Of a stretch of DNA of 64,000 bases, positions 1 to 38,490 are shown piece by piece. Location of the stretch: the NCBI GenBank assembly GCA_964016885.1, contig OZ024742.1, positions 274,846,001 through 274,910,000 on the forward strand, written 5' to 3'. The notes under the pieces are model-generated. The model searched no databases, was not told the origin of the DNA, and saw only the letters and a program-made list of their open reading frames with translations. This DNA is from Eledone cirrhosa (Eukaryota). The position numbers and the translations under genes were made by a program. Position 1 is the first letter of the stretch. Each line of letters starts with the position of its first letter.

Positions 1-3
1 GGC

Positions 4-420
4 TTGGACGTTGCAGGCTTCCCTTCCCAGCTCGAGCCGGTGGGGCTGGACAGAGGGGAAGGTAAAAGGCCTGATGGCATGACCATCTTCCCGTTCCGCG
101 GTGGCAAACCCCTCGTCTGGGATGCCACTTGCACCGATACTTTCTGCAGCCGCAGCCTGGTGCAGTCTGCGACTAACCGAGGTTCTGCTGCTTGTCGGGT
201 TGAGGAGGCCAAACTCCTCAAATATCGGTCGGTCTCCGACAGGTTTGTGGTTGTATCTATGACAGTGGAGACTTCTGGTGTCCTCGGCCCTAGGGCTACC
301 TCCCTACTCACCACCATAGGCGCTGAGCTGGCCAGCCGCAGGTGTGAGCCCCGCGAGTTGGAGTGGCTTTTCTTGCGCGTCTCTCCTTGCCGTCCTCCGG
401 GAATACGCCTTCTCCATTCC
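4..420 (+). mobile_element. C-terminal restriction-like endonuclease fragment of a CRE-like non-LTR retrotransposon
   Basis: ORF 4-513 has RPDG...F.GGKPLVWDATCTDT...K..KY...VETSGVLG, typical of RLE domains in CRE-type LINEs. A related copy lies at ~6250-6510. Confidence 0.7.
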
Positions 421-999
421 GTCCGCCGGGGCTGTGGGGAGACAAGCCGATCATATTACGAATTCCGTCGAATAGTCTTAAATACGATTGTTAGAAGTGA
501 TGAATTAAAATAAAAATGTCTTTTTTTCACCTATCAGATGAAAAAGTTGTTAAATTCTTAATGCTTACAAAATATACTAGATAATTTGCTAAGATATTTT
601 TTATTAATATGACTATTAAATTAAAAACAGCATATTTGTTGATAAAAAAAAACATACCATGTTCCTTTAGAAATATGAAATCCCAGTAGATACACACACA
701 TATACATATATGTGTCTACTGTGGCGATTCACTGCTAATTGATTTAACAGATGGTGCCAAAATTTCTTTGGCCACTATAAAATCCTTTAGTTTCCTCTAA
801 AATATATGAGCGTATGTATATATGAAATTCATATTATGAATGTCTATAAGTATTTGATTGTGAATATGAACCTGTATTTTTTTGTCATTATATTAAATGT
901 ATATTTCTAAAAATAGTTTTTCAAAGAATCCCAGTAATTTAGAATTCCTCAGCCAATGACTTGTGTCCATCCTTAAAAGCGCAACCTTCACCAATCACC

Positions 1000-3400
1000 A
1001 GGTAATATTCAAATACCACCGTATAAACACGCAAGTCGATCTACCTGATAATTTCTTTCGAAACAGTTCTAGTATTTTAGAAGCAATTTCAAATTTTACA
1101 TTTTGTGTATGCACTCTATTATTGCTTTGAGTACTTTACTGTGGTTAGCCCCGATATATCCTTAAAAACCTAGCATATAATATCTCACTCAGAATCTCTA
1201 ACCTTTCATCTAACAAGGATGTATTCGATAAAAATGCGCCCTTTTATAACGAAGCTTTAGCTAGAAGCGGCCACAAAAACAAATTAGTCTATATACCTTG
1301 CAGCAATAATTGTTTCTACTTTAGGCACAAGGCCAGCAATTATCCAGTGCATTACTGGTACTTTATTTTATCGACCCCGTAAGGATGAAAGGCAAAGTTA
1401 ACCTCCAATAATACTTCAAACATACAACCCAATATTACCAACAAACACCAAATGGAAAACCCACACCTAAATGCCACTCACACTACACCCCAAAATACCA
1501 ACCTAAAACTTAATTTTTCTACCTCTTCTCACATAAAATATAATAACTTTCAAAAAACCATTCATCCTAATACTCCAGTATATGTTAACAACATTACTAA
1601 CATAATTCCTAATAATCAGACTAAAACACCTAAATCAGTTAATCTAACTAAACCTATATATAATAAATTCACTAATAGTAACTCTCTTAGTAAACATTCT
1701 GATACATCGTATAAATATAAAAAACAATATCGAAACCGTAAAAGACGGGTTACTTGGTATAATGCTCCATTTAATCTACAAATTAAAGATAATATCCCTA
1801 AAAAATGTTTACTATCCTAGAGAAAAACTTCCCGCCAAACCATAAATACCATCAAATTTTAAATAGATCAACTGTCAAATTTTCCTTCTCCACTGCCAAA
1901 AGTATTCAACAAAATATAAGTGCGTACAACGCATATAAATGTAAGAAAAAACACGAATATACCACCAACACATCAAACCAACCATAATACTAAAATAAAC
2001 CGCAACAAACCACCATCTCCTTCACATATAACAAGTCGAGTAAATTCCACACCAAATTTGACTAACTCCCCTGATATAATATTCACGAATGTTTGTAACT
2101 GTAGAAACAAATGAAATTGCCCATTAAAGGGAAATTGTCTTATTAATAACATAGTCTATAAATGTAAAATTAGCACTAAGGACTCCACTTATTCATATAT
2201 AGGAGCTACGTCTAACCAATTTAAAGTAAAATTTAATACCCACAAACATAGTTTTTAAAATGTCGCATTAGCTAATACAACATCCTTGGCTGAAACACTT
2301 AATAATTATAGAAAAAAGAATATCGATTACAACCCTTATCAAAATAACAGATATGAGTGTAGATTATGCTCCCAGGGACTTTTTGAAATAATGAAATCTA
2401 AGGATATCCTATTAAATAAGCGACAAGAATTAATTATATCTTGAAATCATAGAATTAGAAGAACCTTCAAATATTATAAACCTAATTAATATAGATAGAC
2501 CTTACACTTATATTTTACATATTATTATAATTAGTTTTTTTAAATTTAGTTAACCTATAATTAGTACTTTACTACAGAGAACTTCTTAATTTTATTTCCC
2601 TCTTACATCTCTCTTTTCCTAAAATTAATACCTAAAAGTATACATATAAATTAATTTAATTTCTTGTTATGAATCTAGATTCCATGTAGTTTATATAAGA
2701 TTGGTATTTCTCACTACTACCCCTATCCCCAAATTTTATTTTCCTTCGTTTTTACCAACATTCTTTAATAACATATAATTCTTATTTATCACATCCATAT
2801 GAATTAATATAAATTTATCCCTATAAGTATACCTATCATTTAATTTCATTTCTTGTTATAGATCTAGATTCCTTGTGGTTTAAATAAGATTGGTATTTCT
2901 CACTAATACCCTTACCCTAAAATTTTACTTTCCTTCGTTTTTAACATTATTCTTTAATAACATCAAATTTTCGAGTACCCTTCACCGGCTTGACCTCTTT
3001 TCATCCCCAAAGTATTCTTTTCATTCAAAGTATTCTTTCCATTCAAAACATAAGTCTGCACTCCTCTACCCCTAAATTAAATTTCTACTACTACTATTCT
3101 ATCAACTTGACCTCTTACTACTTTTCTATTGGTCAATTCAAAACCTGTTCCCAAACATACCTATTATATTGAATCTTTGTTGTTTTTTTTCAATAAACAA
3201 ATCTCATCATTTCTGAAGACAGCATATATATGTGAAGGTATGTATATTTCCTCTGGTAGTTTGTAATATGTTTACATAGATCTATATGATATACATACCA
3301 ACACACATATATATCCTAGAAACTATCGTAAAATGATGAATGTTTTAATATAAGGAACTTGTTCTTTGTTTTTATTCATTGTTTTTATTAATTTATCTTG
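1000..3400 (+). mobile_element. Decayed PLE (WYNAPF / CNC..CP...C linker type), late RT to GIY-YIG plus AT-rich 3' region
   Basis: RKRRVTWYNAPFN (ORF 1452), FPPNHKYHQILNRSTVKFSFS (ORF 1805), CNCRNK then IVYKC..YIG at ~2090-2210. Many stops and frameshifts. Confidence 0.8.
1305..1405 (-). mobile_element. Truncated SINE (3' part) inserted in the PLE
   Basis: Near-identical to the 3' half of the SINEs at 15070-15459. Confidence 0.8.
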
Positions 3401-3526
3401 ACTCCGTTTTCCTATGATATTCATCGAAATTTTTTGAATTTATCTTCTCTTTTCATTATATTTGGATTACATTGAGTTCTTCATACGTATTGGACACTAC
3501 CGTATATTTTGGTACATTTATCTACA

Positions 3527-3529
3527 CAC

Positions 3530-3612
<83 letters not shown>
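3527..3612. repeat. (TA)n microsatellite
   Basis: Direct reading; one of more than 25 (TA)n tracts in the window. Confidence 0.95.
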
Positions 3613-3617
<5 letters not shown>

Positions 3618-4388
3618 ATTTACATATACATAAAGTCATATATGTGGCAACCGGTCACGTTGTGGCTCAATGAAGAATTAATAAATTAAATAATCAGAGC
3701 AATATATCATAAATCATGTCCTTAGAATTATTAGATAAAATATATACCATTTCCTCTCCCAATTAGCATAATTAACCATATAAAAATCAATTAGACCAGG
3801 CTATAAGAATAAAGGCTCATATGAAGAAATTTTCGACAAATAACCGAAAGCGGCCTCTTAGCGGTGGCCCCAATAGATTATTTATCCAACATTTCAACAG
3901 CATGTAGAAACTGACTAAAGATACCGTCAACCATACACAATTAGGTGTAAATTCAAACTTAGAAGAAATGTGTACATACCGTAATTATATCTCTACCATG
4001 GTTTCGTCCGTATTTTTAGACATCCTATTATCAGGATATATCCAGAGTAACAGACTCATCAGGAGAAAACTCAAGATTGGACAGTTAATTTTCCAAAGTG
4101 ATCGCGCCAGAAATAGATTAAAAAATGGCTAAGAATCGTGACGTGGCAGTGGTCAAGTTAGAAAGAATGTGATTAGTTGCTTACAGCGGGTAGGCTTGTT
4201 GCTAGAAAGCGCAGCCCAGTATCGCACAATTGTATCTCAACCTAACGGGAGATTATTAAATATAAAGATTTACATATACATAAAGTCATAGATATATATG
4301 TGGCAACCGGTCACGCTGTGGCTCAATGAAGAATTAATAAATGAAATAATCAGAGCAATATATCATAAATCATGTCCTTAGAATTATA
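3611..4388 (-). mobile_element. Retrozyme-like element: 650-bp non-coding monomer x1.2, (TA)n-flanked, HHR on minus strand
   Basis: tataaagatttacatatacataaagtc occurs at 3611 and 4261. The ORF track lists no ORF starting in the unit. HHR at 3990-4066. Confidence 0.75.
3990..4066 (-). ncRNA. Type I hammerhead ribozyme, canonical core
   Basis: Minus strand: TCTC CTGATGA GTCTGT...ACGGAC GAA ACCATGGT A GAGA. Stem I TCTC/GAGA, stem II GTCTGT/ACGGAC with an inner hairpin, palindromic stem III, GUA site. Confidence 0.85.
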
Positions 4389-4701
4389 TATATATATATA
4401 TACAGGGAGAGACAGAGGATGATAGGTAGATAGATAGATGCATACAAGCATACGTGCAGAGGTAGTTTCGTACGTAGCTCTCTCAATAGTTTTCTCACCC
4501 TACTGAGAGATGGGGAGGGCAAGAGAGATGGAGGGGATGGAAGTGGGAGTTCGGCTGTTCTTTCCTATTCACTTAGGTTACTATTTCCTTTTCTGTGAAA
4601 AAGTTATATACCTCCATTTTTGCATTCCATTGGATGTCATTGTTAACGACCACTTCCACTTTCTTTTCTACATCATCTTCAATGTCGTTATCTTTGTGAT
4701 C

Positions 4702-4707
4702 ACAACA

Positions 4708-4760
<53 letters not shown>

Positions 4761-4762
4761 AA
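4702..4762. repeat. (ACT)n trinucleotide microsatellite
   Basis: Direct reading; source of the poly-T and poly-S pseudo-ORFs. Confidence 0.95.
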
Positions 4763-4959
4763 CCCCCTTTAAGGAGTGTGTTTTTAATACTCTTTAGTGA
4801 TATTGGTATTGTAAATGACTTTGTATGTAGGATTATATTTACTTTCATCTTTAGGCAAATTTATAAGAATACACATGCACGTGTGCGCGCACGCGCGCAC
4901 ACATGCACATACACAGACTCACACACGCACACACACATACGAATATATATATATATATA

Positions 4960-5648
4960 TACATTTAAAGTATATGATAAACACGAAATGTGTTTACATT
5001 GCAACAGACAAAGTTAGCTATTAACTGCTCGGAAGAGCCCCTTCCTGGAGCTTAATTATTGTAAACGACTGAGAGTTTATTCTCAAAATATAATATAATG
5101 TATAGCTCCTTTATTGTAAGAGCTGATCCTTAATCCTGCATAAGCGGCTGTTATTTCTAGCACCGTGAATGTGGGATAGCTAGTTTTGGCCTGCCTACCC
5201 ACGTGTAGTCAGACCTGCAAAATTTTTGATGTGAGATAGACTAATCTTACTGGATTCCTGTTGATAAGCACAGAAGATTTGTACATTTCACTCTTATATT
5301 TCTATTCCATTTCGATTCTCTTTATTTTTCAATTCACATTCCACCGTTGCGAAACTTATTTGGGTTTCGAGGTTCAAATTCGTCTACAGAACAGGTTTGA
5401 ATTTTGAAATTTAAATATGTCCAGGAATCATGGCCGTTGCCAATATAATCTTGTCTTTATTGACTTGTATCGAGACAGACAAATTGTATTCACTTTTATT
5501 AGTTTATTTCATTAATAGCTAACTTTGTCTGTTGCAATGTAAACACATTTCGTGTTTATCATATACTTTAAATGTATTAACTGCTCGGAAGAGCCCCTTC
5601 CTGGAGCTTAATTATTGTAAACGACTGAGAGTTTATTCTCAAAATATA

Positions 5649-5656
<8 letters not shown>
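4960..5656 (+). mobile_element. Retrozyme-like element family A: 556-bp monomer x1.14 plus a 65-bp 5' inversion, in (TA)n
   Basis: ttaactgctcggaagagcc occurs at 5021 and 5577. 4960-5024 is the reverse complement of 5512-5576. Variant HHR at 5253-5429. Confidence 0.75.
5253..5429 (+). ncRNA. Extended type I hammerhead with U3-A8 core
   Basis: GATTCCTG TTGATAA GCA...TGC GAAA C[~27-bp hairpin 5355-5419]GTC CAGGAATC. Stem I is 8 bp perfect; cleavage predicted after C5421. Confidence 0.8.
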
Positions 5657-5732
<76 letters not shown>

Positions 5733-6249
5733 AAGGTTAACAAAGGGGGTTAACAAAGCAAAGATTTGGGTTTCAATTTATACAATTCTGCTCTGCTTCT
5801 GAACAATTTGCATTGCCTTGCTAAACGCTGTGCTTGCGACGTCACTATTTGATTAGGAAAGGGATTTCCACATTTCCACGGTAACCGTACTTCCCCTAAA
5901 CCAGGGCTTCGGATCTGCGGTCAACACAAATGCCATTGCAGATAAATGATGCATTATTCTTTCGATATTAATGAACGGTAATGAGCCCCGCAATTTGGTA
6001 TGACATTTTAGTATATGTTTCTGTCTAGTTCCCAGGTAATGCTTTCTCTATTCTCCCCACAGACACCATGAGGCTGCACACGTATGCGATTCTGCAGAGT
6101 GAAATAAAGGAGAGTTGTATGAAACATAACATTATTTGGTTCTTGTTGTTACAATTGGCCAATAAATATACATGCATACACACATACACTTATTAATACA
6201 TCACTTGAATTCATTTCTCATTAAAAAATAACTAACCATCAACCTGTTG

Positions 6250-6510
6250 CGCTTCGGGCTGAAGATGGTAATCTCTCCAAATATTTGTCACACTCCGATA
6301 GGTTTGCGGTCAACCCATTGGCAGTGGAGACTTCTAGTGTCCTTGGCTTTAGGGCAACCTTCTTACTCATCACCATCGGCTCAGAGTTGGCTACCCGCAG
6401 GTGTGACTCTGGCGAGCTGGAATGCTCTTCCAATGCTCTCCCATGCCATCATCAAGGGAAATACCCTTCTTTGTTCTATCCACCAGGGCCGCGGGGCTAC
6501 CAGCCCGTGG
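6250..6510 (+). mobile_element. Second CRE-like RLE fragment
   Basis: DRFAVNPLAVETSSVLGFRATFLLITIGSELATRRCD is homologous to ORF 4-513. Confidence 0.65.
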
Positions 6511-7490
6511 TCCCCCATTTGCTCATAATAATGAGAGATGGGAAAGTGGGAGAGGCGGAGGCAGTGACACTAGGAGTTTGTTTCAATTGTGTTCGGTCCT
6601 GTATAAGTATATATTTCTTTACCGCACCACATCCTAGTGTTATCTAGGTATTTCTCATTTATCTTCTTATAAAACATTATAGAAATGAAATACGGAAATC
6701 AAACACAACTGTGTGGTCAGAAATTGATTAGTGAGGTAATTGTTTGAAATAAATTATACATATGCTCACTATATTTCTGAAATGTCGGCTTCGAAACGGG
6801 AATATGACTAAGAGCATGAAATTCAGAAATGAAAATGACACGAGGCGGTATCTCATGCGCGCTACATAATCCAATGTGGGAATAGATATAGAAAAGCAAA
6901 CTTAAGAAAGTGTAAACTTGTAGTGGAAGCTTTGAGGAGAAATAAAGTAGTACAATACATAGTGCCATAAATAAGACCAAAATCAAAGAGCGAGACAGGA
7001 TCACTGCTGATCTTGTTATCAAGGAATTGCACATTTTCTGGCGTGGTTTACAAAAATGAGAAGAACTTCTCAAGAAAGAGATTTGCATAACTTTCCAAAT
7101 AAAAAACGTGTATATTCTAAAGGTAAAATCGATAAAGTATAATTATTATTGAAAAAAGCAAAAACTATAATTTAAAAGCAATTCCGGGTGCAATGATGCG
7201 GACTATAAAGTAGAAAATAAAAGAAACGTTTGCTGAAAATTTGCTGTGTGGTGAATAAAAAGTAACTGCCACAAAAGGGTTTCCTATTATCTAAACATAT
7301 ATCAACAAAATAAGAAAAACAACAACAATCTACCATACATGAAACAAATCGAACTGCTTCAGTAAGGTAATTTTGCTGCACACACACACACATAGACACA
7401 CACACAAACACACACCTATATATATATACGTACATATGTGTGTGTATATGTGTGTGTATGTATGTATATATATATATATATGTATATATT

Positions 7491-8396
7491 TACCAAGGCC
7501 TTTTGCCCGTATGTGTTTGTGAGTATTGATTTATTATTTTTTAGATCGGTACAGGCAGACTATATGTATTTGAATTAAGATATTTCATTCTAACTATTTA
7601 TTGTCAATTGCAACAAAAACATGTAAATGTTTATCATATATTAATTTATACTGCTCAGAAGCGATTCTTAGAGCTAAAATAATTGTAAATGACCCCATTG
7701 CGTGTAAACTCTAAGTTATATTATATCACTGCTTCCTCAGTTGAACTGAATTTGTAATCCCATATAAACGGCTGTTATTTCTAGCACTATGAGTGTGGCA
7801 GGCTAGAGGATTGGAATAAGTCGTGTGCAAAACCTCGTGTATTTTCGCTACGTTAACCAGACCTTAGATTTTTTCCGAGGTGAAGTTACTTAATTTATCT
7901 GGTTACCTATTGATAAACACAGAAAATTAATTAACGCACTACTAATTAATTGATTATTTCACTACTATACGATCCTTTGTGAAACACGTTTAAATTTTGA
8001 GGTTCGGACTGATCTGCGGAAAAGTTTGTATTTTGAAGTTTAAACGTGTCTAGGTACCAAGGCCTTTTGCCCGTATGTGTTTGTGAGTATTGATTTATTA
8101 TTTTTTAGATCGGTACAGGCAGACTATATGTATTTGAATTAAGATATTTCATTCTAGCTATTTATTGTCAATTGCAACAAAAACATGTAAATGTTTATCA
8201 TATATTAATTTATACTGCTCAGAAGCGATTCTTAGAGCTAAAATAATTGTAAATGACCCCATTGAGTGTAAACTCTAAGTTATATTATATTACTGCTCCC
8301 TCAGTTGAGCTGAATTTGTAATCCCATATAAACGGCTGTTATTTCTAGCACTATGAGTGTGGGAGGCTAGAGGATTGGAATAAGTCGTGTGCAAAA
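7491..8396 (+). mobile_element. Retrozyme-like element family A relative: 564-bp monomer x1.6
   Basis: taccaaggccttttgcccg occurs at 7491 and 8055. Shares blocks (actgctc.gaag, ggctgttatttctagcac, ttgataa.cacagaa) with 5021-5576. Confidence 0.75.
7900..8059 (+). ncRNA. Extended type I hammerhead with U3-A8 core
   Basis: TGGTTACCTA TTGATAA ACA...TGT GAAA CACGTTTAAA...TTTAAACGTG TC TAGGTACCA. Cleavage predicted after C8050; helices covary with 5253-5429. Confidence 0.8.
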
Positions 8397-8779
8397 TACA
8401 TTATTCTTTTCTCTCTATCATCAAACTTTTTAATCTCAATACATATTAACTCCCTCTCCTTCTTCGTACATATTTTTCCCTTCGTTAATTTTCAAATTCT
8501 TTTAATTTATACATTATCTTCCAACGGTTTTCAACCTCTCTATGTAAAACAATATATCTTTTCTCAGTTATAAAAACTATCTCTTTCTCTCTATCACCCA
8601 TCTCTCCCTCTCCACCTTCACTCTCATCTCCTCCCCTTTTTTTTCATCCTTTTCACCCCCCCCCCTCTCTAAACAAAATATTTTCCCAATATCACACATC
8701 AATCTAAAATTACTTTTCATATGTTGATTTAAAACTGCACTATCCACAAGTGTTTTTTAGCCTTCATATCATGTCCTCC

Positions 8780-8850
8780 TGTTTTATCTGATGAAAACAC
8801 AAATATTATTGCATGATGATGTTTGTTTTTGAAATGCGCATAACAAAATA
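8780..8850 (+). ncRNA. Type I hammerhead (PLE pLTR type)
   Basis: GTTTTAT CTGATGA [~15-bp stem II] GAA ATGCGCAT A ACAAAAT. Palindromic stem III; one mismatch in stem I. Confidence 0.75.
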
Positions 8851-8994
8851 CATGGAACTCCTTTAACCATCTTTTGATCTTATATATTATGTATACTCCA
8901 GTCCTACAAACTGTAGAGTGCTTCTTATCCGATATCTGCATTGCTTTATTGTACTACAATAAAACTCACCTCCTACATTATATATATATATATA

Positions 8995-9973
<979 letters not shown>

Positions 9974-10494
9974 AACCGAAGGAGAACAGGAAGACAATAC
10001 TTTGGTTCGCGAAGACGTTCCCTGGCAATGAACTTGAAAAAGCGAAGATAATACATCAGCAATGAGAACAATATTTTCTCTAGCGTTCTAGAGCAAATAT
10101 ATAAATGACATATATTTATCCTTTTCGAGCCCTCTTTGGAATTTTGTCTTCACATTTATTATTATTACTAATTATATTATATATATATATAATTAATTAT
10201 TGAGAGGGCGTGCGGTATCTTTGCACTGAATTAATTAAAAGTTGGTTAGAAGCGAAGTCAATGCAGACAGGCAGCCAGAGAGATAGATATTATAAGCATG
10301 CGACGTTATAGCTATGTATATAATGCAGACAGCCAGAAATACAGAGTCATATTAAAAGGGTGCGACGTTATAGCTATGTATTATAACAGATGGCCTTGTG
10401 CCAAAAGTAGAAACGATTATAACGGAGTTATTAAATTTTTTTCAACAAGAAAACTACACAGCCATATAAACATATTTATACACACACACGAATA

Positions 10495-10581
<87 letters not shown>

Positions 10582-10598
10582 GTATGAATTCATTTTAT

Positions 10599-10645
10599 TG
10601 CTGACAATCGTTTCTTCCAAACTATCATTTGGATCCATCGGAGCA
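10599..10645 (-). ncRNA. Hammerhead-like motif with CCGA core; homologous copy at 15642-15685 (-)
   Basis: TGCT CCGATGG ATCCAAA..TTTGGAA GAAA CGATTG TC AGCA, and GCT CCGATGA TCCCAAA..TTTGGAA GAAA AATTG TC AGC. Confidence 0.6.
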
Positions 10646-11092
10646 GTAGCAATGTTTGTATATATAATTAACCTCCTATTCAACTGAACAATCTTATAGA
10701 TACATGGATATTAATGTTGTCAACAGTTTCGTATTTACAGAGTGGAATGGATGCGAGTAACTTTCTACCTTAATGCCTTTTAATTGTTATACTATTCCTC
10801 TGTCGTATGCTTTCCACTCTGTGCCTTTTTAATTTTTAATATTCAATTTTTAAGATTTTATTTTTAATTTTAATTATTGTACAATTCTCTTGAAATCTAT
10901 GTCGCAATAAAATGATTTGATTATTGTGTAATTTATATTCCGGCTCTGTAAAACATCTCATGTATTTACATTGAGATATTTTTCTTACTGGTAATAAGGT
11001 AGTAATAAATTACTGACCTTTCCTGTTTATAGTTCTATACATAACTATAAATAATATTATTTTTTATTATTATCTATATATGTGTATATGTG

Positions 11093-11133
<41 letters not shown>

Positions 11134-11135
<2 letters not shown>

Positions 11136-11860
11136 CTCTAATAGGTTTCGGCCAGTATTGTCCCATGCCATGTCTAACTTAATAGCACCACCTGGCGAAG
11201 TCTTTCAAATTAGGATTTGGACACCATGGCTCACTCAAGTAGAGAGTTATTGTTTACGAAGGCATATCCGGGTGTAGGAGGTTTATCCGGGATTTATTGA
11301 AGGAATTTGTCCAAAGACTTCTTGAACTTGATGGGGTCTGTTTCTGTTTTAATGTGTTTTGATGTAATGTTAAAGACAGCTGGGTCAATTTATGTGAAAT
11401 AATTGTGCCGTATTGTTGTTATGAGATGCGAGTGAGATTTTTGTTGTGGTCGGATAGCACGAGGCCCGAACCTTGGGTGTACCTTAAAAGTGATGCCAAC
11501 ATCATTTGGCTAAATCTGATGGAATATTTTCCACATCATGCAGATAATGTAGCGCTCACGGCGATGTTGTGTTGGTGGGAATAAAGGTTGAGCTTTTCTA
11601 ATCGACTCCAATAGTCAAAGCCTGTCTATCTTTTTTGTAATTGATACTTTGGTTCCTGTGGGGTGACCAAAGTGAACCACAGTATTCAAGGTGGGGTTCG
11701 GGAAAAAGTGGAGAAGACACGGTTAACATGTGGATATCTCTCGACTGGAAGGATCTGAGAATCCAGGAACACATCCTGCGGGCCATGTCAACTTTGCTGT
11801 TTATATGAGTGGCCCAGTTTATGTTGTTGTTCACAATTACACCCAGATCTCTGATGAAAG
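11134..11860 (-). mobile_element. 3' fragment of a CR1/L2-group LINE
   Basis: RDLGVIVNNNINWATHINSKV...PHLEYCGSLWSPH...RRERYII; ends in a (TA)n tract. Second copy at ~56510-57205. Confidence 0.8.
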
Positions 11861-12269
11861 TTTCACCTGAACGTTTCTTTCGAGAAAGTGGGTTATTCGT
11901 GATCTCAACACGCTCTCTAATACCTTGATGATATGATAGGTGAGTGAGATTGGACGGTAGTTCACGCAAGGGACTTATTTGCATTTTTGAAAACTGGGAC
12001 AACGGACTGGGACAGAAAGTTTTCAGGAATATAGCCAGTATCCAGTGAGTTCCTCCTCAGATTAGCAAGAGGAGATGCAAGTTGGTGTCGACACACCTCC
12101 AAGACACAAGCAGGGCATCTGTCGATGCCTACTGCTGAATCGTGTTTAATTTCGCTTATTGCCGCTAAGACATCAGGGGCGCCAAACGTTATGTCCGATA
12201 TAGTGTGTTATATAGTATATATATATATGGGTGTGTATATGTATGAATGTGGTGGTGTGCGTGTGTGTG

Positions 12270-12609
12270 TATCATTATTTAACTTGTTTTGCTAGATTTC
12301 TCATCTGAAAAATAGTTCTGAATGAAATACCTTTATACTTTGGGATGGTCATGCTGCCAATAAAAAGAAACGCACCTGTTGGTTTTCATTTCAATTTATT
12401 ATAAATTTCCAGTTGGTTGGTTGATTCTTTAACCGGATGGTTGTTTATATTTAGTCAAATCTCTTTCACTACACGTTCTGTGACCTCCTCAGTGACTGGA
12501 TTTTTAATTTGTGTCCCTCCTTTGTTCTATCCTAAGCCAGCTTCTTTTTGTGTGCTGTGTGCTGTGTGTTTGGTTTGCGTATACGTTACATTCGGACGTG
12601 TGTGTGTAT

Positions 12610-12640
<31 letters not shown>

Positions 12641-14480
12641 TATGTTTATTTAATCGTCACGAGTTGGTTGTTTGTTCTATCTGTGTGTGCCTGGTTTGTT
12701 TTATTAGTTTTGTTTTTTGTATGTCTCAGTATGTCTTCATTTTGACCTTAGTTACAAGTTGTGATGTTGCTATTCCACTCCTATCGTTTGTCTGATTTTG
12801 GTTGGAGTTCGTTTATGTTTGTCGTCTCTGTAATTTGTATGACCATTCCATCTTTGCTGAGAGTGGATGTAATTTCTATCTCTATATTCTCTAATTTGCA
12901 CCTATTTCCTATTTTGGCACGTTGGTGGAGTACTGAGGAGTTTTTACCATCTTGGAGTCCTCGCCGCTATGCTACGGGCTGTTTCACCTATGTATGTTGT
13001 GTTCTAATCCCTGCACTGTCCCTCATTATATATTATGCTATATACTGTTTCCAGTTTTGCTGTTAGTTTGCGGGCTTAGTTTGCAGACTATGCATTTCCT
13101 ATCAGTGCAGCGAGTTCTTTGAAACGGATATATTTTACTAATTAGGGTTATTATGGGAATCCCTAGTCTTTCAACTATCTTAATATTGAATTGTTTTTTT
13201 AATAGAGCACTTCTAAATCTGTCACCTAGTTCGCATTGATGTAAATTACACTGGTATTTATTGCTATCATACTATGAGTTGATTTTATTTGTCTTTTTCT
13301 TAATCATTTCTATTTTATTCCAAAATTTGCTCCTAGTCATTGGGCACGTCCCATTTGCATCATTTTCTACAATATTTGCCCATTTGATCCTGGCTCCTTT
13401 ATATACTCCGATCTTGTCTCTCTGTTTGTTGACAGAGTACTATATGCAGTGGATGAAATGCTCTATGTGTCTCTATAATTATTTAGGATTGCACATGCAG
13501 GACACCTTCCGCATTACTCTTACAATACTTGCAAATAATATGTTGATATTCATGTTATCCGAAACGGCTGAGATTTGGAGGATCAAGTATTTGGAGGTCA
13601 TGGTTTTGGCATAATTCAAATGGAGGATTGTGTTCTATTATCACGTATTTCTAATCTACCCACAGTGCTGTATCTAGAACATGTAATATATGGTTGGGGT
13701 GTTTAGTTGGATAATCTATGGTACATTTAATACACTGGTGGATGGAGTTAGCTATTTGCTGGATGGTGTTCTTCTCTTATTAATTTGGGAGTGTTTTCAA
13801 GGCGGTGTTTATATAATCTACATAGTGTGAGTACATAGTCAGGGTTATAAAATTATCGCGTAAGCGTTCCTTAAGTCTTATAGCATAAGGTGCACTGAGG
13901 AACAGTATAGTAATAAGAACACAACATACATAGGCGAAACAGCACGTAGCATAGGAGAAAAGATAAGGGAAGACTGGTGAGAACTCCAAGATGGGATAAA
14001 CTCATCAGTACTCCACCAACATGCCAAAATAAAACATAGGGGCAAATTAGAGAACATACAGAAAAGATGCAACGTTCAGACAAATTATAGAGGCGACAAA
14101 CATAAACGAACACCAACCAAAATTAAACAGAAAATATGAGTGGAACAGCAACATTACAACTAGTAATTAAGGGCAAAATGATGACATACAGACACACACA
14201 GACCAAAATAATAAAACAAACCATACACGCACGGATAGAAGAAAACAACCAACTAGTGACAAGTTAAAAAACACATAAGTAAATAAATGAAAACACACAA
14301 TGTAACGCATGCGCTACACAAACACATAGCACACAACACACAAAAATAAAATGTTGTAGGACAAAGCAAAGTTGAGGAGGTCACAGAATGTGTGACGAAA
14401 TATTTATGACAATATATAAATAACTATCCCGGATATTTATAATGAATTGAAGTGAAAACTAACAGCTGCATTTGTTTTCA
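12270..14480 (-). mobile_element. Decayed PLE (same family as 16.1-20.9 kb): minus-strand body with an inverted pLTR at ~13880-14480
   Basis: Reverse-complement homology to 19530-20920. HHR motifs at 12453-12497 (-) and 14372-14410 (+, damaged). Confidence 0.8.
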
Positions 14481-14561
14481 TAGGCGGCATATCCTCCCAA
14501 TATATATATATATATATGTATATTTGTGTGTGTACCGGGTTATCTCAAAAGTATGTTTTCG

Positions 14562-14610
<49 letters not shown>

Positions 14611-14889
14611 CATGTAAAAAGAGGATTAACACGGATAAGCGATATAATGGTGTTCCTTCGAAGAATTAACCTATGTTCCATCACCTGTTTAGTAATTGAT
14701 TCTTCTCTTGAAACCGCTATCATTAATATTCGATTGACAATTGTGAAATTAAATTTTAATTACATGAAATAATACACCAGTGAATTTCTGCTGGACCGGC
14801 AATCGCTCTGTATAATCAGCTTCTGATTATTAGTGGAATTCTATAAGAATTCAGCTTTTATAATTTTCACCGGAAGCAGGCGAGTACGT

Positions 14890-14931
14890 GGCTCTGATGA
14901 ACGCCAACCAGCGTGAAACAGACTGTCAGCT
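14890..14931 (+). ncRNA. Type I hammerhead, fully canonical core
   Basis: GGCT CTGATGA ACGC CAACCA GCGT GAAA CAG A CTG TC AGCT. Cleavage predicted after C14927; lies in a (TA)-flanked block at ~14610-15060. Confidence 0.85.
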
Positions 14932-15069
14932 TCTCTCCCTTCTTTCGCCGAAAATAAGTAAGTGACATAGTCGCTACATTAAAACTGATAGCGTATAGTT
15001 TTCTAAATATTTATAATTAAACATACGGTATATTGGCAAATATACTATACATACATTTATATATATATA

Positions 15070-15459
15070 ACAATAATTGTTTCTACTTTTGGCACAAGGC
15101 CAGCAATTACCCAGTGTATTGCTGGTATTTTATTATATCAACCCTGTAAGGATGAAAGGCAAAGTTAACCTCGTGGGATTTGAACTCAGATCATAAAGGG
15201 ACGTAACTCTACGCTCCAAAGCATGGTGTCCGACTCTCTACCGATACTGCCAATACACCGCCCTTAATAATAATTGTTTCTACTTTAGGCACAAGGCCAG
15301 CAATTACCCAGTGCATTACTGGTACTTTATTTTATCGACCCCGTAAGGATGAAAGGCAAAGTCAACCTCGGCGGGATTTGAACTCAGATCGTAAAGGGAC
15401 GTAACTATGCTGGAAAGCATGGCATCTGACCCTCTACCGATACTGCCAATCCACCGCCC
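15070..15459 (-). mobile_element. Two tandem tRNA-derived SINEs
   Basis: A-box-like TGGCAGTATCGG, B-box GAGTTCAAATCC, central GCCTTTCATCCTTACGGGGTCGATAAAATAAAGTACC (Meta-domain-like) and (ATT)n tail. Confidence 0.85.
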
Positions 15460-16109
15460 TTCCGATACTGCCAATCCAATAATAATGATAGTTATGTATA
15501 TACTATACTATAAACAACTATAAACAGGAAAGGTCAGTAATTTATTACTACCTTATTACCAGTAAGAGAAAAAGCTCAATGTTTTACAGAGCAGGAATAT
15601 AAATTACACAAATATCAAAGCTATGTTCAAATTACTTAATCGCTGACAATTTTTCTTCCAAATTTTAGTTTGGGATCATCGGAGCATTATCAATGTTCGT
15701 ACATATAATTAACCTCCTATTCAATTGAACAATCATATAGATAGATATATATTGATGTCGTGAACAATAGTTTCGTATTTACATGGTGTAGTGGATGCGA
15801 CATATATTATACGAGAATCGTACAATAATTCAAATTAAAATTAAAAGCACAGAGTGGAATACATGCAACAGATAATACAAGAGAATAGTCTAATAATTAA
15901 AGAGGTATTGAGAAAGAAGTACATATTCAAGCGTGTAGAGATTGCGCATGCGTTAGTCATATATATGAGAAGGAAACAAGCAAAGGTAAAAGGCATTGCA
16001 AGGTATTACATAAATTATTAGGTATTAGGTATGGCAAGGTAATACATAAAATACAAGCACTTTAAGCGAATATGTTAATGTATTATGGAGGATGTAATGC
16101 GATGATAGT

Positions 16110-19100
16110 TTCTGTAGAGTATAAATTTGTATGTAAGATAAGAAATGCATAATCTGTAAACTAAGCCCCCCTATTAACTGTAAAACTAGAAATGTAGTAT
16201 ATAGCATAAGACGTAGTGAAGGACAATGTAAAGATAAGAATATAGTGTACATAGGTGAGACAGCTCGTAGTATAGGAGAACGGTTAAATGAACACTGGCG
16301 AGAGCTTCAAGATAAAAGAGAATCATCGATACTCCACCAACATGCTAAAATAGAACATAATGGCAAATTAGAGAACATAGAATTAAAAATAGAATCTACA
16401 CACAGAAAAGACGCAATGTTTAGACAAATCACAGAGGCAATAAACATAGATGAACTCCAACCAAAATTAAATAGAAAACATGAATGGAATAGCAACATCA
16501 CAACTTACAATTAAGGACAAAATGAAAACACACACACATATAGAACAAACAACCAACCAGTAACATGTAAATAAACAAATAAATAAACAAATAAAACACA
16601 CACAGACACCCGGATGTAACACATGAGCAAACTAAGCACACAACTCACACAAAAACAAGATGGCGGAGGACAGAACAAAGGAGAGGCACAGAACAAAGAA
16701 AAGAATCCCCAGTCACTGAAGAGAACACAGAATGTGTGGCGAAAGAACTTTGACAATACATGAACAACTGTCCGGTTGTGGAACCAACCAACCAACCGGA
16801 AATTTATGAATTTATAAATTTAATTTATAATAAATTGAAGTGAAAGAAACTGGTGCGTGTGATTCTTATTGGCAACATGATCCTCCCAAAGTATAACAAT
16901 ATCGGTTTCAACAGACGTTTTCAGATAAAGAATCTTGCTAAACAAATTCAGAAACAAAATAGCTTAAGCCTTAGCCAGGCTAACAAGATACTGAAAACCA
17001 CCATGTTCTGTTGTCTACGAAAAACAATAACATCTCGACAACTACACTTCATAAAAGAATGTGCCTCATCTCGAGTTTACACCAACACCATCAACACCGA
17101 TGTAAGAAGATTACAACTTACCAAAAAGCAAGCAGATGGGCTAAAACTAACACTAATTCTAAACATAATAAAGAAGAGTTACATCAAGAAAAACATAAGC
17201 GTAACCTAATACAAGAAATAACTAAGATCACCACACCAAGAGAAAAATTAATATATATAACGTGACGAAGAAAAGTACATCATCCGGCAGTGCAACAAGC
17301 ACTTTAACAAGAAATTAAAGTGGCTCAAACAGATGAAACTAAACCAAGTTACTTCAGAGAATAGAGATAAATATCCAGACAAGATTGGTGGTATAAACAT
17401 GGCCGACATCTCATTAACGGATGAATTCAACAACAACAACACAAATATATACGGCAACACCACAATCGAGTCTGATGAATTATCGATATTACAGCTACCA
17501 CCTAAATATGCCACATATAATAAGGTAAATATGATAAGATGCTTGTCAGAAATAGAAAAATCATTTACAAAATTACGTTCAGCCTTAAAAACAACAACAA
17601 CAAAAACAAAATCAAAAGTAACAACATACGCACACACACACACACATACAACACACATCCCAACAACAACAGACACACAAACACAAACAACGATAACAAC
17701 AACAACACACACATCAACAATAATAACATACTCAGAGACAACAACAGACACACAGACACAGACAACAATAACAACAACAACACACAACAATAATAACATA
17801 CATGGAGACAACAACAACACACATCAACAACAGCACACATCAACAACAACAACAACAACAACAACACACACACATTCAATGCCTCTCACCACCACTACAA
17901 TCTTAACAAACACACAGACACAGAAAACAGGTAATGACAGTAGCACAGAAATAAGGGAAGGTAATGGGATTGAAAGGAGATGGGAGACTATGGACAGAGA
18001 AAATAACTAGGAATACACGCAGACACACAAAATAGAGTAGATAATAACAATGAGCCAGGGGAAAGAGACAGGAGTAATAATGAGAGACATAGAAACAACC
18101 ACGAGGCTGTTGGTGGAAATAGAAATAGAAACAACACAACTAACAATAACAATAGCATTAGTACACATAAAGCAGCAACCTGGAACTCTACTTTTTATAA
18201 TCCTTCCGATAAATCGTTCGACCTGCGACGAGTCCGCGCCACGGCTTTAGCTTTTAACAAACGCACGCAATTGCCGTCGCAGGTCGATGAACAAACAGAA
18301 GCACAATTTAGTATAGCTAGATCTACACTTAGAAATATTATAGGACAGTATAGCAAGAAGCATAATAGAATGGAGGCCCAGCAACTGGGAGAAAAATCTG
18401 CAAATGACTTGCGTAAGCTCATGCAGCGCTCGCGTAATGGAGAGATTGCATGCTTTCCAACAGACAAGTCTGACAGAATGTCGGTTGAAAGTCTTTCAAA
18501 CTACATCCAGGCAATGCAATCCCACATCACTAACACAAGAGAAGTAACACCACAAAGCATGAGGATAGGGAGAAAACCCTCAATGCCCATATGATGATGT
18601 GGACAAACATAATGCAGCCCAATAAAAGGACTGCCAACAACTTCCAGGCCTGGAACAATGACGTGCCAGCGTTGTATGGGCTTCGAAAAGACCATAAGAC
18701 GAACAGTGACCCTGTCACAGGACCACCAACACGGCCAGTCTGTGGAGCTAACAATGCTAGTAACTACAGACTTTCCTACTTCCTCTCCCTGATCATACGC
18801 CCCATCATATTAATGTCCCCAGATATATGTGATAGCACGAGGACCTTCTCAGCAGAATCAGCGAAAATAACCGATCTAGAGACCTAACAGACTGTATAAT
18901 AGGTAGTATGGATGTTGTGTCCCTATATCCATCCATTGACGTGGATTTTGCTGTGGGGAAATGCGTAGAAATGATCAGTGAGAACAATGTTGAATTCCGT
19001 GGGATTGATACCAGTGAGCTGGGACTCCTACTTAAACTTACCTATCGTAATGATTATAAGGATACGTATGACCTTAGTAACCTGTGCCCTACAAGACCAG

Positions 19101-20920
19101 CACGAGGCAGACCACCTATCATTAACTCAATTGCCTAGAAAACCAACACAGAAAGATGGAACGGGTGGACCAGAGCCATATGGACCCCCGAAAACCACGA
19201 TGAACTAAAGAAAATGATTGCACATGCGGTGGGGGCCAGTATAAACTAACCCTTAAGGAACATATGTTCAAATTTAATGGAAAAACATATGCCCAAGAGG
19301 AGGGAGCAGCCATTGTAGTTAGCATTGCAGGTGACATAGCTAGCCTATTCATGGTATGGTGGGACAATAAACTTAAACTTAAACTTAAAGAAAAATTAGA
19401 AGACAGCAACCTCTTAACCCTGATTATGTACTCCCGCTACGTTGATGATATAAATATCGTAGTAAAAACACCCCCACTAGAGAACAGTCAGGAATTAGAG
19501 AAAAACACCATGGAAAGCATCCAGCAAATAGCTAACTCCATCCACCAGAGTATTAGAGTTACTATAGACTACCAAGCAAACACCCCAACCTGTACTAGAC
19601 ACAGAGCTCTGGTTAGAAACCATTAATAACAAAAAACAAATCCTCCATTCCCATTATGCCAAACCCATGTCATCCAAATATCCGATCCACCGAAACTCAG
19701 CTGTTTCGGATCACACCAAAATCAACATACTGATTGCGGGTTTGGTACGGGTAATGAGAAACGTATCCCGCATGTGCAACCCCAAAGAACTAAAGAGACA
19801 CATACACCACTTCATCCACCGTATGCAGTTCTCTGGTTACAATCAGAGAGATAAAATCGGAGTATAGGAGCAAATTTTGGAATAGAATAGAAAGAACTAG
19901 GAATAAGGTTAATAGAATAAACTGATGGTATGATAGCAATAAATACCAGAGTGTAATGTTCATCAATACAACCTCTCGGGGTGAATTAGCTTACAAATTT
20001 AGAAGGGCCCTAGATATACTTAAACTTAATATTAAGATAGTAGAAAGACCAAGTACCTCCATAAAAACACTTATTAGTTATACATACCCTTTTCAAAGAC
20101 CTCCCTGTATAGATGAGAAATGCATAATCTGTAAATTAAGCCCCCATATTAACTGTAAAACTAGAAATAACATAAGATGTACTGAAGGACAATGTAAAGA
20201 TAATGATATAGTGCACATAGGTGAGGCAGCTCGTAGTATAGGAGAACGGTTAAATGAACACTGGCGAGAGCTTCAAGATAAAAAAGAATCATCAATACTC
20301 CACCAACATGCTAAAATAGAACATAAGGGCAAATTAGAGAACATAGAAATAAAAATAGAATCTACACACAGAAAAGACGCAATGTTTAGACAAATCACAG
20401 AGGCAATAAACATAGATGAACTCCAACCAAAATTAAATAGAAAACATGAATGGAATAGCAACATCACAACTTACAATTAAGGACAACATGAAAACACACA
20501 CACATAGAACAAACAACCAACCAGTAACATGTAAATAAACAAATAAATAAACAAATAAAAACACACACAGACACACGGATGTAACACATGCGTAAACTAA
20601 GCACACAACTCACACAAAAACAAGATGGCGTAGGACAGAACAAAGGAGAGGCACAAAACAAAGTAAAGAATCTACAGTCACTGAAGAGGTCACAGAATGT
20701 GTGACAAAAGAACTTTGACAATATATGAACAACCGTCCGGTTGTGGAACCAACCAACCAACCGGAAATTTATAAGTTTATAAATTTAATTTATAATAAAT
20801 TGGAGTGAAAACAACTGGTGCGTGTGTATCTTATTGGCAACATGACGCTCCAAAAGTATAACAATATCAGTTTCAACACACGTTTTCAGATAAAGAATCT
20901 TGCTAAACAAATTCAGAAAC
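16110..20920 (+). mobile_element. Near full-length frameshifted PLE with direct pseudo-LTRs (~16110-16955 and ~20090-20920)
   Basis: LYGLRKDHK..TRPVCG, MDVVSLYP, QEEGAAI, YSRYVDD, and GIY-YIG (YIGETARSIGERLNEH...EAINI...LN). The pLTR includes the ORF 3' end and an HHR (16712-16754, 20677-20719); the element ends at (TA)n. Confidence 0.92.
16712..16754 (+). ncRNA. pLTR hammerhead (four related copies in the window)
   Basis: Consensus GTCA CTGARGA G GTCACA GAATG TGTGAC GAAA GAACT T TGAC; each copy carries some decay. Confidence 0.65.
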
Positions 20921-20921
20921 G

Positions 20922-20967
<46 letters not shown>

Positions 20968-28459: not shown

Positions 28460-28512
<53 letters not shown>

Positions 28513-29064
28513 AAATAATACAGCCAATTTTCCACGCAATACTTTTAGTTAGCACCCCGAACACATAATTGGGAATATAATCACTTATTTCCTAATGTTT
28601 GTTGAGTGAGTTGGAATTTGGCCGGAGTATCGCTAAAAAGCTTTCTCCGATATTGTATTTATTTACTTACTCTTGGCGCAGCAGATTTGAAAAAAATTCC
28701 CGGTATAAGGTTAGCATTTATTTGTTTATTTTTTATATATGAATATTGATTGTTCCTTATATCTCATTCTGTTATTTTGCCCGAGAAAATATCTGTGGGT
28801 GTCATCAAATGTTGTACACACATAGATATTTTTTCAATTTCCAATTGAGTTCTTAGCACGTGGCCTGAATTCCTTTCAGAGTTCATTTTCACGCGCATGT
28901 ATTGTTTTTTTTGGCGGTAATTCACTTTCTCATTTTTTGAATCAGTTCGAGCACTTCTTTCAGAACTGTTGGACTGGCTACCTGACAGATACCTCAGGCA
29001 CAGAAAGTGATTATCGCTAAATGCTGATGTTGGTTAGATTATCAATATTAGTATTATTAGGGCA

Positions 29065-29191
29065 CCCACTGATGAATTATAGGAGCCCACTTGAATATAT
29101 ATCTATTGATGGTATACAAGCTCCTACATAAATTGGCATAGTTTCACCCAAATTGTAGGAGTCCTATAATGAAACGAAACGTCCGTCTGAG
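29065..29191 (+). ncRNA. Type I hammerhead with a large branched stem II (unit 1)
   Basis: CCCA CTGATGA ATTATAGGA[77 nt, two hairpins]TCCTATAAT GAAA CG AAACGTC CG TC TGAG. Cleavage predicted after C29187. Confidence 0.85.
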
Positions 29192-29772
29192 AAGAGATAT
29201 ATTAGATATGTCTCATTTGAAATAATACAGCCAATTTTCTACGCAATAATTTTAGTTAGCACCCCGAACACATAATTGGGAATATAATCACTTATTTCCT
29301 AATGTTTGTTGAGTGAGTTGGAATTTGGCCGGCGTATCGCTAAAAAGCTTTCTCCGATATTGTATTTATTTACTTACTCTTGGCGTAGCAGATTTGAAAA
29401 AGATTCCCGGTATAAGGTTAGCATTTCTTTGTTTATTTTTTATATATGAATATTGATTGTTCCTTATATCTCATTCTGTTATTTTGCCCGAGAAAATATC
29501 TGTGGGTGTCATCAAATGTTGTACACACATAGATATTTTTTCAATTTCCAATTAAATTCTTAGCACGTGGCCTGAATTCTATTCAGAGTTCATTGTCACG
29601 CGCATGTATTGTTTTTTTGGGGCGGTAATTCACTTCCTCATTTTTTGAATCAGTTCGAGCACTTCTTTCAGAACTGCTGGACTGGCTACCTGACAGATAC
29701 CTCAGGCACAGAAAGTGATTATCGCTAAATGCTGATGTTGGTTAGATTATCAATATTAGTATTATTGGGGCA

Positions 29773-29899
29773 CCCACTGATGAATTATAGGAGCCCACTT
29801 GAATATATATCTATTGATGGTATACAAGCTTCTACATAAATTGGTATAATTTCACCCAAATTGTAGGAGTCCTATAATGAAATGAGACGTCCGTCTGGG
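29773..29899 (+). ncRNA. Type I hammerhead with a large branched stem II (unit 2)
   Basis: Same fold with stem I CCCA/TGGG perfect. Cleavage predicted after C29895, 708 nt from the first site. Confidence 0.85.
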
Positions 29900-30099
29900 A
29901 AGAGATATATTAGATATGTCTCATTTGAAATAATACAGCCAATTTTCCACGCAATACTTTTAGTTAGCACCCCGAACATATAATTGGGAATATAATCACT
30001 TATTTCCTAATGTTTGTTGAGTGAGTTGGAATTTAGCCGGAGTATCGCTAAAAAGCTTTCTCCGATATTGTATTTATTATATATATATATATATATATA

Positions 30100-32160: not shown

Positions 32161-32555
32161 TTCTGGTACCCTATTCACGCCACTGGGACGAAGCTGGCGT
32201 GATGTGTGTATTTGTATTAAATGCAAAACGTGCTAATAGTTAGTCACAGATTTGAATTTGATGTGTAAATACAGATAGTTAAGTCTTATTCCTTGTAGAA
32301 AATCCACGATTTGGCAACTATCGTTTACCAATCGATTAATTGGTGAAATATATTTCTTTAATGAAATATATACAAGGAAGATTAATCTGTTTATAAGGTA
32401 TCTATTTTTGAAGTTCTAGTTAAACTTTAATTAGTTACCCACATAGCTGTGTGTGCTTACACAATATTACAGATTATCCCCTTTGATTGTTTCATATGTT
32501 TATTTTAGATATATATATATGTCAATCAATTTCTAGTTGATATATATATATATAT

Positions 32556-38045: not shown

Positions 38046-38254
38046 ACAATATATTAACAAATGGAAACTATATTTATAAAACCATATTTATTTTATTATA
38101 CATATTTCAAGGGCCACCAAGGAAAATTATGGTGCGCTTTCATTAGATAAAATACAATACAGATTAGTTTATAAATAAATATTGAAGCTCCAACCGTTAA
38201 GGTTGTCTTTTTTCAGGGTATGTCAATATTTATTTATAAAACTAATCTGTATTG

Positions 38255-38320
38255 TATTTTATCTGATGAAAGCGCACCATAATTTGCTTTGGTGGCCCTT
38301 GAAATATGTATAATAAAATA
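38255..38320 (+). ncRNA. Type I hammerhead with intact core; inverted twin at 38089-38154 (-) carries G5A
   Basis: TATTTTAT CTGATGA AAGCGCACCA..TGGTGGCCCTT GAA ATATGTAT A ATAAAATA, within inverted arms ~38042-38184 / ~38222-38366. Confidence 0.8.
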
Positions 38321-38450
38321 AATATGATTTATAAATATAGTTTCCATTTGTTAATATATTGTATATTTACTCCACTAAACTGTTGAGCGCTTTATATCAG
38401 TTATAAAAATGTTTAAGCTTGTTGAATCCCAACAAATTAAATATAACCCC

Positions 38451-38490
<40 letters not shown>

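Follow-up and report, generated by a model that had tools for sequence, protein, structure and literature searches.

Results

In the window analysed here, a 64,000-nt stretch of the Eledone cirrhosa genome (GCA_964016885.1, contig OZ024742.1, positions 274,846,001 to 274,910,000 of the forward strand), two insertions of a non-coding tandem repeat were found. They belong to a real and abundant element that depends on Penelope-like elements (PLEs) and carries an oversized hammerhead motif with a U3-A8 core. We favour, with modest confidence, the reading that the element is a PLE-dependent retrozyme without long terminal repeats (a non-LTR retrozyme), in which the hammerhead would still be selected to cut in subfamilies A, B, C and E and would probably switch between two folds. 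As judged from the sequence, the element has the testable features of a metazoan non-LTR retrozyme.

Structure of the units and of the hammerhead motif

Insertion A consists of a 65-nt inverted piece, one full unit and an 84-nt tail, flanked by TA runs, and insertion B of a partial unit, a full unit and 187 nt of a third (Table 1). The units are arranged head to tail and are non-coding; units A and B are collinear and about 66% alike, and neither an LTR nor a primer-binding site (PBS) or polypurine tract (PPT) was seen, as judged from the sequence and the insertion maps. The first-pass annotation had described two diverged, collinear, non-coding monomers of 556 and 564 nt, with which the positions, the collinearity and the short open reading frames (ORFs) measured here agree. 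It had also given each monomer as more than one tandem unit, which holds in the sense of 1.15 units (A) and 1.6 units (B), although each window insertion has a single hammerhead.

Both units show the layout of a type I hammerhead with a U3-A8 core, and TTGATAA (from 5261 and 7910), GAAA (5351 and 7981) and C17 (5421 and 8050) lie where they had been placed before. Every part of the type I core (Y3 U4 G5 A6 N7 R8 A9, G12 A13 A14, A15.1-U16.1, H17 and the 3-8 pair) is present. The hammerhead is 165-185 nt in size, with an insert of 35-77 nt in loop II; stem I, the base swap in stem II and the G-U-rich stem III, measured as 26 bp, were recovered, as were the GCTC..GAGC hairpins outside the ribozyme in both units. 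The 10.1-11.1 pair is swapped from G-C to A-U in B. The bulge of stem I in window copy B is a private change at 7903, and 35 of 36 B pieces pair without it. No loop I-loop II contact or pseudoknot was evident by inspection, no systematic search having been made. A search of Rfam gave no hammerhead match on the motif (window 1-20000; loci L031, L085 and L095), in line with the earlier view that standard searches would miss it. Matches to Rfam Hammerhead_HH9 below the gathering score were seen outside the units (window 14876-14958; L095 2554-2625 and 2942-3013).

When the units were folded as circles, the + strand reached -132.7 kcal/mol in A and -129.9 kcal/mol in B, versus -113.3 and -93.8 kcal/mol for the - strand; the + strand, previously named as the folding strand, thus folds better by 19 (A) and 36 (B) kcal/mol. 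The folding z-scores of the monomers were -3.9 (A) and -3.4 (B), and none of 100 shuffles folded as well. When the hammerhead structure was mapped onto 11 representatives, 94% of the cells were paired, and slid controls gave 12-51%. Among the same representatives, double-sided changes were observed in six of the 37 hammerhead pairs (three in stem I, one in stem II and two in stem III), including the core-flanking pair and the base of stem II. The covariation claimed from the two window units is also found across these representatives: its score was reached by 0 of 500 shuffles, a control that ignores relatedness, and the number of pairs by 30 of 500. RNAalifold, unaided, returned the first two stems and the greater part of stem III, and over the whole unit 16 of 110 pairs had double changes. 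Stems I and III of the hammerhead are well supported and stem II weakly.

The three helices converge exactly on the boundaries of the core. Among five representatives, 11 of the 12 core positions are invariant. An intact core is carried by 35 of the 36 B pieces and by 25 of the 39 A pieces, and in D the core is degenerate. Changes on shared lineages at the 12 core positions were counted in 86 non-D copies chosen without use of the core pattern, and two were observed versus 9.2 expected (P about 0.01). Intact cores were present in 70 of these copies, and U3 and U4 were unchanged in all 86. An earlier figure for this constraint (P 0.005) was dropped, being biased by a core-based anchor.

Copies and subfamilies in the genome

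In the genome (3.0 Gb, microsatellite-rich, with repeats of cephalopod appearance), a pattern comprising stem I, the core and stem II with at most one mismatch gave 1,287 matches, and its control gave 0. Candidate regions were scored for 40 each of 1,832 (A query), 1,557 (B) and 2,551 (third variant) first-look candidates; the sampled set contains 163 loci, or about 127 distinct insertions, of more than a thousand motif matches. The 97 distinct monomers fall into five subfamilies, A-E, which are 63-89% alike, with a unit length of 480-565 nt (483-558 nt between anchors). In an unrooted tree of 30 thinned monomers, the clades were B+E, A+C and D. U3-A8 is carried by subfamilies A, B, C and E, and much of D departs from the type I core. 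U3 is the family state. A canonical C3 subfamily was rejected: the C3 pattern gave six matches (control, one), of which five were family copies (three of A type, two of D type) and one was unrelated. Metagenome contigs yielded 0 matches to the motif, so that relatives from outside this genome were not obtained.

The 1,214 matches to the most conserved 18-mer of the unit (window 5146-5163) were ruled out as a copy number, 12 of 30 loci being another repeat. This 18-mer also occurs without mismatch in a 2-kb non-coding element that is unrelated to the unit and has terminal direct repeats of about 340 bp. The 12 loci (L063, L064, L066, L067, L069, L072, L075, L076, L079, L080, L083 and L084) belong to this element, and the match may reflect a shared motif, capture or chance. 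Some D copies (L088, L104, L105, L110 and L118) have a 37-nt deletion between direct repeats and a shorter stem III, and long and short D units can occur within one insertion (L105, L111).

Insertion ends and tandem copying

Among the A 3' ends before a TA run, 28 lie at position 556 and 27 at position 84 (55 of 62); the corresponding B ends lie at position 564 (21) and position 81 (20), or 41 of 44. Thus, in A and B, two fixed 3' ends are spaced by 81-84 nt, and the 5' ends are scattered. Inverted arms with 5' truncations occur frequently, in many cases one for each fixed end, and the arrangement of the inverted 3' piece in insertion A was seen again at many loci. With (TA)n targets, 5' truncation, inversion and partial tandems, the copies bear the marks of PLE mobilisation. 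The GCTC..GAGC hairpin by the first fixed end is a candidate recognition element for reverse transcriptase.

Within a locus, tandem units differed by 0.63% and inverted arms by 0.69% in A (1.7 and 2.2% in B), and these values are exceeded by the mean differences between loci, 4.5% (A) and 6.1% (B). Such similarity of A and B tandems would be expected if a single template, for instance a circle, were copied repeatedly, but also if the template were a multimer of identical units. In D, a slight excess was found in tandems (3.0%, versus 2.3% in inverted arms), and three D loci have unlike units in tandem (L107, 21/465 differences; L135, 18/244; L115, 19/295). Head-to-tail runs of units without an ORF reach 3.3 units (L176). 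Several hammerheads in one insertion, the retrozyme criterion of 2026, were found in the family (L005, L018 and L176) and in neither window insertion.

Junctions with a Hydra-type PLE

Copy B is fused to window 8397-8978; from longer copies, this sequence was recognised as the terminal 3' part of an autonomous PLE. The protein of this PLE has CxCx5C and DKT motifs, which are together diagnostic of the (TA)n-targeting Hydra clade (PMC8557442); its endonuclease part gave no match in Pfam. Its own two 3' ends are 83-86 nt apart, and the first is followed by a hairpin shaped like that of the unit (an outer stem of 4 bp, an inner stem and a bulge of 2 nt). The hammerhead of this PLE has a canonical C3-G8 core, a short stem III and a loop II region of 36 nt. 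Window 8397-8978 is of very high copy number, with a contig depth at the tip of about 1e5 times that of unique DNA. Of the contig sets placed on window 5735-8980 (X1, X2 and X4), X4 covered neither unique DNA nor unit B, and these data carry no weight as to expression.

Junctions of a unit with a PLE that lack a TA run were found in three of the about 127 insertions, namely window B, L070 and L036. The L070 locus, a single insertion, carries the inverted PLE end at one side and the unit tail at the other, and both adjoin a TA run; in L036, unit B is joined to a 5'-truncated ORF of another CxCx5C family. Nested insertion at these junctions was rejected, given that the window, 1.1 kb of L070 and about 13 kb past L036 showed no unit remainder; a remainder may have been deleted later. 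The simplest reading of the fusions would be template switching by one enzyme. In view of the three direct fusions, a Hydra-type PLE is the likely mobiliser. The first-pass annotation had left room for units always linked to an autonomous ORF. Using 10 PLE protein queries, no unit was found directly downstream of a reverse transcriptase/GIY-YIG ORF at any sampled locus: a TA run lay between the unit and 14 of the 15 PLE protein matches, and the last one, with a 5'-truncated ORF, lay downstream of the unit.

The unit and the fused PLE have in common only the tail length and the hairpin shape. In the Hydra-type PLE that adjoins unit B, as seen at locus L207 (G000:C1:175469000-175474300), the 3' region is long and AT-rich and contains at least two hammerhead-like cores.

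Features of the window

The features of both insertions and of the fused PLE are listed in Table 1.

Table 1. Coordinates of the two insertions and of the PLE end joined to insertion B, in window positions
Feature	Position	Strand	Remark
Inverted 3' piece of unit A (unit positions 492-556)	4960..5024	-	Ends at first fixed 3' end, adjoins (TA)n
Unit A, 556 nt	5021..5576	+	Non-coding, longest ATG ORF 32 aa
GCTC..GAGC hairpin, unit A	5027..5051	+	Just 3' of first fixed end
Hammerhead A	5253..5429	+	Predicted cut after C5421
Hammerhead A, stem I	5253-5260/5422-5429	+	
Hammerhead A, core UUGAUAA	5261-5267	+	
Hammerhead A, stem II	5268-5270/5348-5350	+	
Hammerhead A, GAAA	5351-5354	+	
Hammerhead A, stem III	about 5354-5379/5395-5420	+	
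Tail of insertion A (unit positions 1-84)	5577..5660	+	Ends at second fixed 3' end, then (TA)n
5'-truncated partial unit B (positions 410-564)	7491..7645	+	Preceded by (TA)n
Unit B, 564 nt	7646..8209	+	Non-coding, longest ATG ORF 34 aa
GCTC..GAGC hairpin, unit B	7653..7674	+	
Hammerhead B	7902..8058	+	Predicted cut after C8050
Hammerhead B, core	7910-7916	+	
Hammerhead B, stem II	7917-7919/7978-7980	+	
Hammerhead B, GAAA	7981-7984	+	
Partial unit B (positions 1-187)	8210..8396	+	Abuts PLE sequence without a TA run
3' untranslated region/pseudo-LTR of autonomous Hydra-type PLE	8397..8978	+	Fused to copy B, ends in (TA)n
Canonical hammerhead core of fused PLE	8788-8794	+	
Two 3' ends of fused PLE	near 8895 and 8978	+	

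Other PLE-related sequences were also observed. An inverted PLE-type 3' end at 38060-38460 carries a type I hammerhead of canonical form, with its core at 38263, and a similarly long tail; its relatives are often separated from retrozyme copies by a TA run. Other types of PLE, in a decayed state, occupy 16137-20923 and 30917-32170; they comprise a partial tandem whose repeats contain minimal-hammerhead-like cores, and an ORF with reverse transcriptase and GIY-YIG parts. None of these types was directly joined to a retrozyme unit among the sampled loci. A tandem non-coding repeat of 707/708 nt (28496-30210, - strand; about 2.3 units) ends at (TA)n and is possibly another PLE-borne element; no hammerhead was detected in it by a relaxed scan.

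Discussion

According to the favoured reading, RNA of the 480-565-nt units would fold into the conserved structure, and the reverse transcriptase/GIY-YIG protein of a Hydra-type PLE would nick (TA)n. Synthesis of complementary DNA would start at either of two internal sites spaced by 81-84 nt and would extend over more than one unit, with frequent 5' truncations and inversions. In A, B, C and E, the oversized type I U3-A8 hammerhead would most likely cut multimeric transcripts into circularisable units; it would probably alternate between an active fold and a more stable inactive fold, and may need the help of a protein. The earlier picture of a viroid-like, structured RNA parasite stands as regards structured, non-coding, PLE-dependent repeats with covarying helices, but it overstated the novelty of the U3-A8 core and of the unit size.

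Several points weigh against a hammerhead that still cuts. Stem II consists of 3 bp around the 35-77-nt insert, and for both window copies it is predicted with a probability of about 0. In these copies, the hammerhead fold is 3.9 (A) and 5.0 (B) kcal/mol above the minimum; it costs 3.5-6.6 kcal/mol in seven of eight folded sequences and is the minimum only for C1. In the consensus fold, GAUA of the core is paired with UGUC at the cut site, and GAAA is able to sit in a small GNRA-capped hairpin, so that most of the core conservation has a second explanation. The change A9U, found in 13 of 39 complete A cores, lengthens this rival helix and occurs exclusively opposite an A (16 of 16). Subfamily D has multiplied even though it has G8, a mismatch at 10.1-11.1, variable positions 3-4 (UU, CC, AU, CU and CA) and, in 11 of 36 copies, U4C. 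Each covarying pair represents one or two events, and because the sequences are related, the covariation amounts to a handful of events. From other systems, it has been reported that eight of nine predicted Xenopus retrozymes failed to cleave in vitro (bioRxiv 10.64898/2026.07.22.740005), that insertion of an anole PLE did not require hammerhead cleavage and that a PLE hammerhead depended on its protein (both PMC11167929). The rival fold and the core-decayed yet amplified D are thus grounds for caution.

The same PLE-dependent element might therefore carry a hammerhead that is a non-cutting relic, its bases kept by the rival fold (a stem I extended by GAUA/UGUC, and the GNRA hairpin), and might have spread from linear read-through transcripts via internal priming; we consider this a distinctly less likely, if serious, possibility. 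It is in keeping with the greater predicted stability of the rival fold, the spread of A9U within A and the D tandems that mix unlike units (L107, L135 and L115), and also with the fact that in D, which is still amplified, only the hammerhead-only bases (3, 4 and 10.1) drift. However, U3 and U4 are unpaired in the rival fold, and it leaves unexplained why both are fixed in all non-D copies and drift in D, as well as the G-C to A-U switch of the 10.1-11.1 pair of stem II in B. Moreover, D looks like a derived loss of the U3-A8 hammerhead, because two of the three clades of the unrooted tree keep U3-A8. A switchable hammerhead that A, B, C and E have kept and D has lost would have about an even chance or better.

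That the repeat is a structured element of the kind of a short interspersed nuclear element, with hammerhead-like letters by coincidence, appears very improbable. Background conservation is high (268 of 473 columns invariant in the five representatives), a relaxed scan of the window yielded one likely chance match, and Rfam recognised no hammerhead on the motif; against this stand the three helices at the exact core boundaries, the covarying core-flanking pair, the near-invariant core and the high prior for a hammerhead in a PLE-mobilised tandem unit (PMC4209133, PMC7229834). Least probable is an orphaned pseudo-LTR of an autonomous PLE whose ORF-bearing copies fall outside the sample: the end signature is that of autonomous PLEs, retrozymes have been proposed to come from pseudo-LTRs (bioRxiv 10.64898/2026.07.22.740005) and the sample covers about 127 insertions of more than 1,000 motif matches, but the head-to-tail runs of L176 have no ORF and the PLE protein matches are set apart from the units as described above. 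Common descent of the unit and the pseudo-LTR of the fused PLE, the one pseudo-LTR tested, is, if anything, argued against by the lack of a significant alignment, since 15-103 of 200 shuffles scored equally high; this result also weighs against the favoured reading of a PLE-dependent retrozyme.

More tentatively, an active U3-A8 hammerhead of two to three times the usual size, with an off-fold, might drive a circular-RNA parasite of Hydra-type PLEs that is recognised by shape. Recognition would then depend not on sequence homology but on a hairpin next to each of the two priming sites, which are spaced by about 84 nt, and subfamily D would be a natural knock-out that reveals the contribution of the ribozyme to transposition.

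What is new here is the size of the hammerhead and its modelled two-state design, the contrast between intact and decayed subfamilies, and the evidence from junctions that points to a Hydra-type helper. So far, animal retrozymes have been linked to PLEs by co-occurrence and by homology to pseudo-LTRs; a specific helper clade is now indicated by the fixed ends, the common tail length and the three chimeric insertions, and the parasite-helper model therefore becomes testable in vitro. Since intact and decayed subfamilies are present in one genome, a direct test of the role of the hammerhead in transposition, a question for PLEs, is offered. If the motif cuts, current descriptors and Rfam models overlook large hammerheads as a class, and retrozymes are undercounted in animal genomes.

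Comparison with known systems

No description of this family was found in the literature, a search that did not extend to supplements, Dfam and Repbase, which may hold it as an unnamed repeat; the available text of the squid genome paper merely counts Rfam hammerheads (PMC6962438). The U3-A8 core, presented by the first-pass annotation as a surprise, has been published: it was reported in PLE hammerheads, with about 1,300 matches in Schistosoma (PMC4209133), and as a natural covariation that is active in vitro and occurs in other natural hammerheads, among which stems II of 1-2 bp also exist (PMC3088659; the consensus core is treated in PMC7151607). Nor is the unit size unusual, as had been claimed, for animal retrozyme units of 51-972 bp, together with a PLE origin, have been reported (Li et al. 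2026, bioRxiv 10.64898/2026.07.22.740005); the present unit lies within this range and above the 170-400 nt of Cervera and De la Pena 2020 (PMC7229834).

Like the metazoan non-LTR retrozymes of these two reports, the element is built of AT-rich units that do not code for protein, follow one another head to tail and each contain a single type I hammerhead; it occurs as dispersed monomers and short multimers, and it co-occurs with PLEs. Unlike the short stems of described retrozymes, it has a long stem III and a large loop II insert within an oversized U3-A8 hammerhead. The hammerheads in PLE pseudo-LTRs, among them the U3-A8 variant of Schistosoma Cercyon (PMC4209133), share the core covariation and the link to PLE transposition; they are minimal, with little or no helix III, and work as dimers, whereas here helix III is very long and the unit lacks an ORF. 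Long helix III variants have been described for fungal and protist PLEs. Two fixed 3' ends, AT-rich targets and inverted 5'-truncated arms recall the anole Poseidon PLE, whose tail arises from two internal initiation sites (PMC11167929); that tail is 30-40 nt, in contrast to 81-84 nt here in a non-autonomous element, a length common to the local Hydra-type PLEs. Targeting of (TA)n is shared with Hydra clade PLEs (PMC8557442), and the Hydra-type PLE, with its canonical C3-G8 hammerhead and short stem III, is a candidate helper and not the element itself.

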